Below, one piece after another: positions 56,175 through 62,195 of a stretch of 64,000 nt of DNA. A program made the position numbers and the translations under genes. Under the pieces are notes generated by a model that was given only the letters and a program-made list of their open reading frames with translations, ran no database searches and was not told the DNA's origin. Origin of the DNA: a virus; IMG/VR virus record IMGVR_UViG_3300020394_000267, positions 1 to 64,000 of that record; one strand, written 5' to 3'. Position 1 is the first letter of the stretch, and each line of letters begins with the position of its first letter.

Positions 56175-56355
56175 AGAAACGCTATGGGGAAATCCTAATA
56201 AAGGCATTAGTGGAGAACCAGACCCAAACGATTTAACATTAGAGAACGCTTATAAGACGCGCTGGATATGGTATCACACTATATTGGGAATCGAATTATT
56301 AATCGTTATTATAGTACAGGTTGCTATATTGACGCTTCTGGCAGTGAAACTATAG
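56155..56355 (+). CDS. Small membrane protein
   Basis: NAYKTRWIWYHTILGIEL followed by TM. Confidence 0.7.
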   Translation: MAWKRVKETLWGNPNKGISGEPDPNDLTLENAYKTRWIWYHTILGIELLIVIIVQVAILTLLAVKL

Positions 56356-56797
56356 AGGAAAAGTTATGTGGCAAACAGGTGGATTTCTTAATACATTAAT
56401 GTGGTTTTTATTGGGGTATTGGGTAGGTATAGGAATGCCTCTACCCGCTATGCCATGGTGTTTATTTGGGTATTGTATATCATGATTACCAGTTGCTTTA
56501 TACAGATAATGTTCGCTTTTATTATAGGGTATATGATAGGAAAGTATAGTGCGCCCTATAGGTAAGAAAGGAACGGTGAGCAGTCTAAGTCGCAATGAAA
56601 CGAAAAAGAACAAAAGACTTGCTAATAAAGGGATTCGCAGACAGGGTAAACGCCAGTCAGAGAGTTCTGTACTTGAACTGTGGAGGGAAAAAAGTGGGAA
56701 ATAGTGGTAATCTAAATCCGCGTGAGGGCAGGAGTGAGCGCCGCCGCCCGACTAAAAAATCAGACGCCGCTGCCGCTCCCAGACGCGGTAAACAGAG

Positions 56798-56826
56798 ATC
56801 ATACCACAGAGCGGCACTAATGTCAA
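56798..56826 (-). promoter_or_regulatory. Leftward sigma70 promoter TTGACA-17-TATGAT
   Basis: Reverse complement of ATCATA (56798-803) and TGTCAA (56821-826); extended -10 TG. Confidence 0.7.
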
Positions 56827-56890
56827 GCACTTTCCGCCATGCGTGGTGGCAGTGGCTGTGAAAATAATTCGTCTTTTTTGAAGAAAACGC

Positions 56891-56919
56891 TTGACAACTG
56901 CTGATCTAATGTGTATAAT
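56891..56919 (+). promoter_or_regulatory. Perfect sigma70 promoter TTGACA-17-TATAAT
   Basis: Exact consensus; GATC in spacer. Confidence 0.8.
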
Positions 56920-56954
56920 AGGGTGTCGCCTTTAAGAAGAGATATGGCTGCTGC

Positions 56955-57025
56955 TAAGTGATTGATATATAAGGGAAATAAAAGATAAAATAATACTTGA
57001 CAACTGGTCTCATATGTGAGATCAT
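56955..57025 (+). promoter_or_regulatory. Early promoter (TTGACA-17-GATCAT) with reverse IHF site
   Basis: TAAGTGATTGATA 56955-56967; -35 at 56997-57002; -10 at 57020-57025. Confidence 0.75.
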
Positions 57026-57059
57026 TATACCATACTGAGAGATGAGGAGATTATATAGT

Positions 57060-57440
57060 GTTGTGACAATAATTTAAACCCCAGTTAAACCGCACCATCT
57101 CACCGTGGTTGAGGTTCAAGGAAGAGTGCTATGGGGTCGGAAATGAATCACGGTGCCGAGTCGCAAAGGTGGCATGACCACGCTCCGATGAGGTAATGAC
57201 AGGCAGGGCTGGCTGCCATGAACAAGGTGGAGAGACAACTACTAAAGGAGAGTCCCCAGTAGTGGCAATGCACAAAGCAGTACCATGAAAAGGACAGGGC
57301 GGATGTCAAAGGGTGAGACCCGGCCGCTAACAGGGTTGTGCCTCAATACACACGCGCTCCCCCACGGTTAGGGGAGCATCACCCAGCAGCAGAGGGGTCA
57401 GGCGGGCCTATGCTTTGGGATCGAGGTGGTCGCCCTTACA
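57060..57440 (+). ncRNA. Candidate large structured non-coding RNA
   Basis: GC-rich island without a credible ORF downstream of two promoters; many hairpins and GNRA-like loops. Confidence 0.6.
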
Positions 57441-57531
57441 AGTGCATCTGGCATCCCCCCATATGCATTACTAAAAAAAGTTTTTGCCCACCCACAGAAA
57501 CCGCCACAGAATTTTTTTCGGGATATAAATT

Positions 57532-57969
57532 ATGGCAGATATAATTTTTGATGTAGACGGCACTCTTATGGATATTACTCATAGGAGGCATTTCGTTGCA
57601 CAGCGTCCCAAGGACTTTGATTCGTTTCGGAGTCATACTGAATTCGATACCAGAAAGGAAGATATCTTTGCCATTGCGGATGCGTTACAGTCACAGGGGC
57701 ATCGTATTCTTATATCTACTGGTAGGAATAAGTCTCAAAGGGATATTACCATTCAACAGATAAGGGATGGCGGTATAGACTTTGAGCAGATATACATGCG
57801 TTCTGATAGTGACTATACACCAGATGATGAGTTAAAGTCACGATTCTTAGACCGTATGATAGATGATGGTTACAATCCTACTATGGCATTTGATGACCGT
57901 CAAAGGGTTGTGGACATGTTTCGTTCACGAGGTTTAACCGTCTTCCAAGTAGCGGAAGGCAATTTTTAA
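57532..57969 (+). CDS. HAD 3'-phosphatase (PseT/PNK phosphatase domain, stand-alone)
   Basis: FDVDGTL, STGR, MR..D..PD..LK, FDDR, G..VFQVA.G.F. Confidence 0.9.
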   Translation: MADIIFDVDGTLMDITHRRHFVAQRPKDFDSFRSHTEFDTRKEDIFAIADALQSQGHRILISTGRNKSQRDITIQQIRDGGIDFEQIYMRSDSDYTPDDELKSRFLDRMIDDGYNPTMAFDDRQRVVDMFRSRGLTVFQVAEGNF

Positions 57970-57979
57970 AAAGGAAGTT

Positions 57980-58234
57980 ATGGGAGTCTACGGAATAAGA
58001 GATGAAAAATACCTTGAAAGAGAAGATACCGAGCTTAAATCAGAAGCAAGTAAACATATTGGTGCAAAGTTTGTTTTGGGGTCTCGTCCTAATAATGTTC
58101 GTATCAATGATGTATCCAACGCCAGCGCAATAGGTCTCTATATGTTACTAGGTTTTGGACTAGGTTATTTTTACAACGATATTAATATGGCATTACTGGA
58201 ATTATGGTGTATGGCGTATGGACTTATCTACTGA
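57980..58234 (+). CDS. Small membrane protein
   Basis: AAGGA RBS, TM segment. Confidence 0.55.
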   Translation: MGVYGIRDEKYLEREDTELKSEASKHIGAKFVLGSRPNNVRINDVSNASAIGLYMLLGFGLGYFYNDINMALLELWCMAYGLIY

Positions 58235-62102: not shown

Positions 62103-62126
62103 TTTGACACCTCCTGTATTAAGAGA

Positions 62127-62195
62127 TGCGTTCCTTCGGCGGAATTGCCTACTTCCGTCCACCGCTACATTTAGGGTGGATGAACGAATGTAGTC
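62127..62195 (-). promoter_or_regulatory. Glutamine riboswitch (Downstream-peptide / glnA family)
   Basis: CGTTCA...GACGGAAGTAGG...CCGAAGGAACGC; 5' CTACAT pairs with loop ATGTAG (pseudoknot); upstream of DUF4278. Confidence 0.88.

Follow-up and report, generated by a model that had tools for sequence, protein, structure and literature searches.

A probable structured non-coding RNA gene with a mini-ORF leader in an uncultured marine T4-like phage

What do two strong early promoters express when no protein-coding gene follows them? The question is raised by a G+C-rich stretch in the IMG/VR record IMGVR_UViG_3300020394_000267, of which the first 64 kb were analysed here and are called the window (the record is 91 kb long, with a completeness estimate of 47%). 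The original prediction, made from the letters alone, placed a possibly new large phage non-coding RNA (ncRNA) or ribozyme behind these promoters. We find that the segment 57031-57465 on the plus strand is very probably a genuine structured ncRNA of ~430 nucleotides (nt). It is non-coding, structured, equipped with its own sigma70-like early promoter, dispensable, and present in RNA libraries. The idea of a possibly new large phage ncRNA has thus gained compensatory base pairs, a consensus fold with a z-score of -5.0, a promoter that is kept in two gene contexts, contigs from RNA libraries and the lack of any matching Rfam family. Two features had been missed, namely the optional cassette in which the RNA lies and a conserved, translated-looking mini open reading frame (mini-ORF) at its 5' end.

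Because its family-B DNA polymerase shares no more than 47% identity with the gp43 proteins of T4-like cyanophages in culture, the source phage is classed by sequence comparison as an uncultured marine T4-like myovirus without a close cultured relative. Nearly all genes of the window are on the plus strand.

Coding potential and conserved structure

IMG/VR viral contigs were scanned by the neighbouring protein and by conserved words. The RNA was found in five further viral records (L003, L004, L022, L117 and L118), and record L002 contains only its 3' part. It is single-copy in each genome. The six sequences amount to about four lineages and two subtypes, L117 and L118 representing the second subtype.

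The G+C content is 55.4% over 57060-57440 and 39.1% across the window, so the elevation claimed before is real. The transcript is 58% purine, with 30% G and 24% C. No ORF longer than 53 amino acids (aa) lies inside 57060-57335 on either strand, and the sole longer ORF nearby is one of 68 aa with a GTG start at 57338-57544. All six sequences have several stops per frame (6-7 in the window), and no frame is open in all six. Pairwise comparisons of the core revealed 3-6 indels that are not multiples of 3, including 1-nt indels. L118 has a minus-strand ORF of 121 aa (125 codons counted between stops), which is not conserved in the other homologues. A protein-coding gene or pseudogene is ruled out by the stops in all frames together with the non-triplet indels; the conserved coding signal that the original prediction had named as a ground for giving it up was not found.

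A curated structure was tested on the six-sequence alignment A5, that is, on the sequences from which it had been derived. In this alignment 95.7% of the cells form standard pairs, compared with 29-47% after a shift of the 3' partners by 1-3 columns, and none of 500 shuffles reached the observed pairing or covariation score. Nine true compensatory pairs are located in four helices, Ha, Hc, He and Hf (Table 1). RNAalifold folded the 172-nt core (alignment A7) at -42.9 kcal/mol, versus -24.6 +/- 3.7 kcal/mol for column-shuffled alignments (z = -5.0, 0/200 as low). The reverse complement of the core gave z = -3.2, and several G-U pairs favour the plus strand. Both general marks of a structured ncRNA, compensatory substitutions and a consensus fold beyond shuffles, are therefore seen in these six sequences, and the comparison of homologues for covariation, as had been proposed, came out positive on this small set.

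Helix Ha was missing from the earlier list of stems. Its double changes convert G-C/U-A/G-C to U-A/G-C/U-A, accompanied by a G-U to G-C and a U-A to U-G change, and its apical loop of 35 nt contains invariant GTGC and GGGGT. These two words and their complements (the ACCCCA/TGGGGT and GCAC/GTGC pairs of the original prediction) are invariant among the homologues; if formed, the pairs would make a pseudoknot with Ha (S1 in Table 1). We put the odds at about even that the core contains the pseudoknot of ACCCC (57078) with GGGGU (57133). As an alternative to S1, RNAalifold proposed a closing helix of CCGC 57090-57093 with GTGG 57227-57230, which shows a G-U to G-C change. Outside the core, the 36-nt insert of Hf is replaced by a 4-nt loop in L022, and Hf is absent in L117 and L118. 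In the 3' domain, the helix 57407-57413 with 57444-57451 has one G-C to G-U change and a bulged base that varies, and a second pseudoknot, CCCAG 57382-57386 with TTGGG 57415-57419, is possible. This domain is kept in L002 behind an ORF and is altered in L117/L118, where it stands without the hairpin module described below. The conserved blocks stop at ~57465, which serves as a provisional 3' limit of the candidate RNA.

All complementary words listed in the original prediction are at their positions, but about a third of the stems drawn from them are wrong. GGCAG/CTGCC and GCTCCCC/GGGGAGC are backed by compensatory change. GCGG/CCGC and GGG-TGAGA-CCC agree with the alignment, but are nearly invariant. 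TCGGA/TCCGA and TGCC/GGCA conflict with covarying helices, and the pair ACTACT/AGTAGT is not conserved in either L004 or L022.

Table 1. Features of the RNA locus, in window coordinates.
Feature	Position	Strand	Basis or remark
Upstream early promoter P1, TTGACA-17-TATAAT	56891-56919	+	12/12 consensus match
RNA gene's own promoter P2	56997-57025	+	TTGACA at 56997, 14-nt spacer, TG-N-GATCAT at 57017-57025 (extended -10)
Whole candidate RNA	57031-57465	+	5' end placed by P2 geometry and by an RNA-library contig start at ~57029-57031
Shine-Dalgarno (SD) GAGGAG (57044-57049) and mini-ORF GTG TTG TGA (57058-57066)	57044-57066	+	SD and mini-ORF present in all homologues, sense codons variable
5' core, 172 nt	57064-57235	+	highest conservation; mean column identity over the two subtypes 88% (A7, R1)
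Candidate pseudoknot S1	ACCCC 57078-57082 with GGGGT 57133-57137; GCAC 57092-57095 with GTGC 57126-57129	+	inferred; would cross Ha
Helix Ha	57103-57110 with 57146-57153	+	best supported; three consecutive compensatory pairs
Helix Hc	57154-57157 with 57192-57195; 57160-57163 with 57186-57189	+	three compensatory pairs; encloses Hd
Hairpin Hd	57167-57172 with 57178-57184	+	stem invariant, loop length variable
Hairpin He, GGCAG/CTGCC	57202-57206 with 57213-57217	+	three stem versions (C-G, G-C, A-U at one pair)
Variable middle of add-on hairpins	57236-57332	+	comparison of homologues
Hairpin Hf	57252-57255 with 57292-57295	+	U-A to C-G
Hairpin Hg	57299-57302 with 57324-57327	+	surrounds GGG-TGAGA-CCC; other stem in its place in L022
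Conserved hairpin module	57333-57377	+	GGGTTGTGCCTCAATACACACGCG, then 7-bp stem with loop CACGGTTA; right edge of L002 swap
3' domain	57378-57465	+	conserved blocks GGCCTATGC and GCATCTGGCATC...CCATAT
Downstream HAD phosphatase, 145 aa	57532-57969	+	PNKP phosphatase domain PF25109, 4.5e-29

No Rfam family includes the RNA. Rfam 15 (4227 models, including GOLLD, ROOL, raiA, OLE, HEARO, IMES, RNase P, transfer-messenger RNA (tmRNA), 6S, group I/II introns, riboswitches and small ribozymes) was run on 57026-57470, as the original prediction had proposed. It gave no match at the gathering thresholds and only three junk matches, far below threshold, at E <= 10; the homologues L022, L004 and L002 gave none at E <= 1. 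ARAGORN found no tRNA or tmRNA in the window and no tmRNA in the 91-kb record, L002-L004 or L022. The word GGGGUCGGAAAUGAAUCACGG is only superficially like a tmRNA 5' end, and a 1-nt indel in L004 disrupts the supposed tag frame. A group I/II intron was rejected: no ORF is interrupted, the HAD phosphatase has a complete N-terminus of its own, the corresponding site in L002 holds an ORF and no joined exon, and no Rfam intron model matched. The original prediction had not recognised the RNA as tmRNA, RNase P or a group I/II intron, and this agrees with the searches. Readings as RNase P, T-box or HDV-like RNA, suggested by local resemblance, were dropped, since the defining parts are absent and Rfam gave no score. 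This RNA might be among the ~10,000 candidate structured RNAs of viruses in a 2023 catalogue (PMC10690425).

Promoters, RNA libraries and the mini-ORF

Both promoters were located as the original prediction had described them. P1 probably does not belong to the RNA gene proper: the window, L002, L003, L004 and L022 have it, but the L117/L118 subtype does not. The layout of P2, TTGACA-N14-TGNGATCAT, precedes the RNA in both subtypes, each with a different gene context; the leaders of L117/L118 have diverged from that of the window while the promoter layout is the same. The -10 element of P2, GATCAT, includes a GATC (Dam) site, and TG stands before the -10 in both subtypes (window, L117, L118); the methylation state of the DNA might control P2 activity. 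The P1 transcript has a tiny ORF of its own, ATG GCT GCT GCT AAG TGA (56944-56961), after the purine tract AAGAAGAG, and L003 and L004 carry an insertion of ~100-130 nt immediately 3' of its ATGGCTG.

The RNA stretch was found in 20 public runs from 11 studies, six of which are RNA libraries. Four RNA runs from four studies were compared as contigs over 56300-58200. The contigs cover 57031-57590, running on to the start of the HAD gene, and one contig of 314 nt begins at ~57029-57031, the expected transcription start of P2. Several variants are represented: some resemble L004 or L118, and others have a different middle segment. The metatranscriptome check suggested earlier has therefore yielded cover of the RNA in four RNA studies, without strand or level. 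The flanks 56300-56727 and 57644-58200 had no cover in these four runs, which was not counted as evidence. Contig ends at 57075-57086 were rejected as RNA ends, as they coincide with a variant site.

Behind P2, the predicted SD-like leader leads to no ATG-started ORF in the window, and only a GTG start, one sense codon and a stop follow it. This arrangement, an SD and a mini-ORF of 2-3 codons, is present in all members, with an SD spacing of 7-8 nt and 1-2 sense codons. The mini-ORF reads GUG UUG UGA in the window, L003 and L004, AUG GCA UGA in L022, AUG ACA GGU UGA in L117 and AUG AGU UGA in L118. All four versions are in frame with the same UGA-C stop, and L117 and L118 differ here by an in-frame 3-nt indel. 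The UGA lies 11 nt upstream of ACCCC, the first strand of the proposed pseudoknot. The fact that presence and frame are kept while the codons change suggests that the ribosome initiating and terminating there would matter, and not the peptide. If the RNA is functional, the chances seem about even that the mini-ORF would load a ribosome at the 5' end, which would guard the RNA against 5'-end-dependent decay, set the timing of 5' pseudoknot folding, or do both.

The cassette, its hairpin module and the distribution of the RNA

The HAD protein of L002, the closest relative, is 96% identical to that of the window, and both flanks are collinear. In L002, an ORF of 142/147 aa replaces the sequence from ~57003, just past the -35 of P2, to ~57333-57335. 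This ORF does not resemble the RNA, and no Pfam, PHROG or Atlas lead was obtained for it. Since the swap runs from the promoter to the conserved hairpin, the RNA is read from this comparison as optional cassette cargo in a hyperplastic region. A replacement between close relatives bounded by an early promoter and a stem-loop, as in promoter-early stem-loop (PeSL) cassettes, is seen between the window and L002; a motif repeated many times per genome is not.

The hairpin module at the right edge is ~45 nt long, with the layout GGGTTGTGCC-NN-AATACACACGCG followed by a hairpin with the invariant CACGGTTA loop. It was found in the window, in L002 (3812-3860) and in L033-L037. In the window, the hairpin (57356-57377, plus strand) has no T-run and is followed by CATCACCC, which is not the form of an intrinsic terminator. 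The same module with a T-run ends unrelated single-gene early units in the five metagenome contigs L033-L037, namely an Hsp20-like gene and a small gene adjoining a permuted tmRNA. Four different covarying stems carry the same loop and 5' flank. The module occurs once in the window and once each in G000, G001 (91% complete), G202, G203 and G204, and it is absent from 49 other T4-like fragments. A loop and 5' flank kept across phages, together with a single copy per genome, are puzzling for a terminator.

Two further RNA elements were observed on two of these contigs, L033 and L037, which are marine and phage-like. Permuted two-piece tmRNAs of the alphaproteobacterial type (RF01849, 135.6 bits on L033) lie at L033:4597-5085 (-) and L037:739-1201 (-); ARAGORN gave the tags ANDNANYGDYALAA (L033) and ANDNFAPLALAA (L037), with a short ORF apparently in the intervening segment. 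A hammerhead-III-like motif, CUGAUGAG...CGAAAC, lies at L033:4550-4592 (-), directly 3' of an early promoter and 5' of a small gene, and scores 30.8 bits, below the gathering score of 48.5; the same sequence occurs in L037.

The RNA occurs in two gene contexts. It neighbours the HAD phosphatase in four of the six loci, lying upstream of it; in L117 and L118, where this gene is not its neighbour, it stands between a 112-aa ORF and an ORF of 54-65 aa. A conserved 330-aa gene farther upstream is common to the L117/L118 region and the window. Farther down in L117/L118 lies a DNA-modification gene of the Mom family (L118:10357-11136, PF25680, 6e-57; ~400 nt 3' of the RNA), which fits a hyperplastic region rich in accessory and counter-defence cargo.

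Sensitive blastn against GenBank phages (INPHARED) did not find the RNA, and by this search no cultured phage carries it. Upstream of 74 further HAD-phosphatase loci, neither blastn nor nhmmer detected it, and a G+C-rich block upstream of HAD exists in the four known RNA loci only. A covariance model of the 172-nt core, R1, run over 50 related phage records matched L117 and L118 only and added no new members. Extra viral-contig matches (L026-L030, L119, L120) were set aside as chance, having no other block in common. One Sphingomonas match among 185,579 species genomes was likewise taken as chance, since R1 does not match that genome, and 151 alphaproteobacterial genomes searched with R1 gave no match (a sample, with cyanobacterial genomes not in the search). 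From these comparisons, the RNA family appears small and uncatalogued, known from one clade of uncultured marine T4-like myoviruses.

Weak R1 matches (E ~0.004-0.01) in G036-G039, which form a related phage group, were gp32 leaders and were rejected as low-complexity resemblance. These leaders (L123-L126) contain three tandem TAAACCGCAA repeats just 5' of the SD, and R1 matches them weakly because the RNA contains UUAAACC-CCAG-UUAAACCGCACC. The TAAACCGCAA motif is not in the gp32 leader of the closest relative; the resemblance could be a shared site for the single-strand-binding protein or plain chance.

Two other structured or G+C-rich elements lie in the window. L022 and L002 conserve a second G+C-rich block (50-52%), located at 56700-56860. 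A strong promoter on the minus strand (TTGACA-17-TATGAT with TG, 56826 to 56798) is directed into it and an 88-aa plus-strand ORF overlaps it, so that the block could be a small leftward RNA or encode a small basic protein. A glutamine riboswitch (RF01739, 60 bits) lies at 62125-62188 on the minus strand.

Possible roles, rival explanations and known systems

The best overall explanation is a promoter-equipped structured ncRNA gene with the roles proposed here, to which we assign a probability of roughly 0.45. According to this explanation, host sigma70 would read P2 early in infection and produce the ~430-nt RNA. A ribosome would load at the SD and mini-ORF and terminate at the fixed UGA near the core, and it would thereby protect the 5' end, time the folding of the 5' pseudoknot, or both. 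The RNA would then accumulate as a stable species and act in trans, its target being the translation machinery or a protein of the host or the phage. Such a stable trans-acting early RNA, as a decoy or scaffold for the translation apparatus or for a factor of host or phage, is our tentative preference: the genes downstream are not the same in both contexts, and HAD stays in position in L002 although the core is missing there. A bolder version seems improbable: a ribosome parked at UGA-C would decide if and when the core folds, the core would then be a ribozyme, an RNA-only assembly or a decoy for a host translation or defence factor, and the RNA would belong to a new class of large phage RNAs.

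Several observations weigh against the ncRNA gene. By single-sequence minimum free energy (MFE), the RNA folds no better than shuffles (z = +0.34 on the plus strand and -0.10 on the minus strand), so that the complementary words of the original prediction are by themselves not beyond chance. The covariation counts are small and, with six sequences, partly inherited, and the structure was tested on its own source sequences. The 3' domain is marginal against shuffled alignments (RNAalifold z = -1.9). The S1 strands are invariant in all sequences, and their pairing has no covariation behind it. The RNA-library contigs give no strand, ends or abundance, and carry-over of DNA is not formally excluded. 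No terminator was found for the RNA, and no antisense match or repeat elsewhere in the 91-kb record, where the longest complementary match is 11 nt. The mini-ORF could be a leftover of the cassette's generic expression signals.

The contigs that reach the HAD start also allow the RNA to be just a long leader, which brings in the strongest rival. A cis-acting leader of the early operon would serve antitermination, control of translation or processing, or a ligand switch coupled to the mini-ORF. Early promoters indeed stand immediately before the RNA, no terminator separates it from the next gene, and the contigs bridge the 3' domain and the HAD start. The embedded hairpin is a terminator in other phages and here has no T-run; a leader ORF followed by a pseudoknot is the classic layout of an attenuator; and even L002 retains the 3' domain, with its U-rich tail, next to the downstream gene. 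Yet L002 keeps HAD and the 3' domain while an ORF replaces the core, which HAD therefore does not require. The two contexts have different genes downstream, and the 74 other HAD loci do without the RNA, which is not what a riboswitch or gene-specific leader would show. No riboswitch family matched, and at ~430 nt with modular hairpins the RNA is much larger than known antitermination or riboswitch leaders. We therefore regard a cis-acting leader as unlikely, if the least unlikely of the rivals.

A catalytic RNA of a new class, or a highly divergent ribozyme, on a mobile cassette is considerably less probable than a leader. Long single-stranded stretches of the core are invariant (e.g. 57075-57102 and 57124-57141), a pseudoknotted topology is likely, and both a hammerhead-like motif and a permuted tmRNA occur behind early promoters on contigs of related marine phages. 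But no ribozyme family matched at E <= 10, there is no interrupted gene and there are no exon-like flanks, hence no intron, and the RNA-library contig ends fall on variant sites (e.g. 57085) and do not mark cleavage.

A non-functional remnant, that is, a decayed gene or G+C-rich host DNA transcribed by position only, is slightly less credible again. In favour of this reading, the G+C content is out of keeping with the genome, L002 shows that the segment can be dispensed with, and the distribution is narrow, at six viral records. However, the core retains its high identity across subtypes whose leaders and flanks have diverged, the changes are concentrated in compensating pairs, the species genomes gave no cellular match bar the one chance hit, the alphaproteobacterial sample gave none, and the replacing ORF of L002 has no resemblance to the RNA.

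Least probable is a replication-origin transcript priming through an R-loop, as at T4 oriF/oriG or in ColE1 RNA II: promoters diverge within 200 bp (the leftward one at 56826) and the transcript is rich in purine, with G above C, but compensatory changes keep RNA helices that an R-loop primer does not need, a segment swapped for an ORF in L002 is more optional than an origin should be, the cumulative GC skew rises smoothly through the site and turns at ~61-62 kb where gene orientation flips, and the same RNA occurs in the other context without a divergent promoter.

If the ncRNA gene is accepted, it adds to a rare group, for complex structured RNAs of several hundred nt are few, and RNase P, tmRNA, GOLLD, ROOL and OLE either opened new biochemistry or stay puzzles. 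This RNA is carried by uncultured marine T4-like phages, which are an abundant group, and ocean RNA libraries from several studies contain it. A protein gene can take its place in a hyperplastic region, a site of host-takeover and counter-defence cargo, where an RNA-based tool would be unusual. The mini-ORF abutting a probable pseudoknot offers a testable link between translation and ncRNA folding, and the small, well conserved core is suited to structure probing and cryo-electron microscopy.

Several known systems share parts of this architecture. The put RNAs of HK022 are ~70 nt long, consist of two stem-loops and act only in cis, as processive antiterminators behind early promoters. The present RNA also lies, structured, immediately behind early promoters with a terminator-type hairpin after it, but it has about six times their length and a modular build, and the downstream gene in L002 does without its core. 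Ribosome-dependent 5' stabilisers, such as the polypurine stabiliser of SP82 early RNA and the ermC leader, act in Bacillus, where they stabilise mRNAs; by analogy, a ribosome held at the strong SD near the 5' end of the early transcript could protect the RNA against 5'-end-dependent decay.

The lambda bar regions are two-codon phage minigenes (background in PMC2490762). The mini-ORF has their layout, a phage-borne SD, a start, one or two sense codons and a stop, which here is always UGA. The effect of the bar minigenes, however, comes from peptidyl-tRNA drop-off and tRNA starvation, and no conserved structured RNA is joined to them. Since the sense codons vary (Leu, Ala, Thr-Gly, Ser), sequestration of one particular tRNA by the mini-ORF is unlikely.

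In PeSL cassettes of T4-type phages, segments bounded by a promoter and a stem-loop are swapped (PMC2839356, PMC4122927). The present locus resembles them as a hyperplastic-region segment exchanged between close relatives, with an early promoter and a stem-loop at its borders, the stem-loop acting as a terminator elsewhere. It differs from them in that PeSL elements are multi-copy per genome while this module is single-copy, and in that the cargo is an RNA and not an ORF.

The closest likeness is to the orphan large RNAs GOLLD (RF01998), ROOL (RF03087), raiA, OLE, HEARO and IMES-1 to -4, of which ROOL and GOLLD build assemblies consisting of RNA only. Like them, the RNA is several hundred nt long and G+C-rich in an A+T-rich genome, has many helices, likely pseudoknots and modular peripheral hairpins, is phage-borne and appears in marine RNA data. 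Unlike them, it matches none of their models, does not lie beside tRNA genes and is known from six viral records, a far narrower distribution. An SD with a mini-ORF of 2-3 codons at the 5' end is not known in the GOLLD, ROOL, raiA, OLE, HEARO or IMES families. What is new here is thus an orphan large phage RNA, unusual in size and architecture, that combines a mini-ORF leader with cassette mobility.

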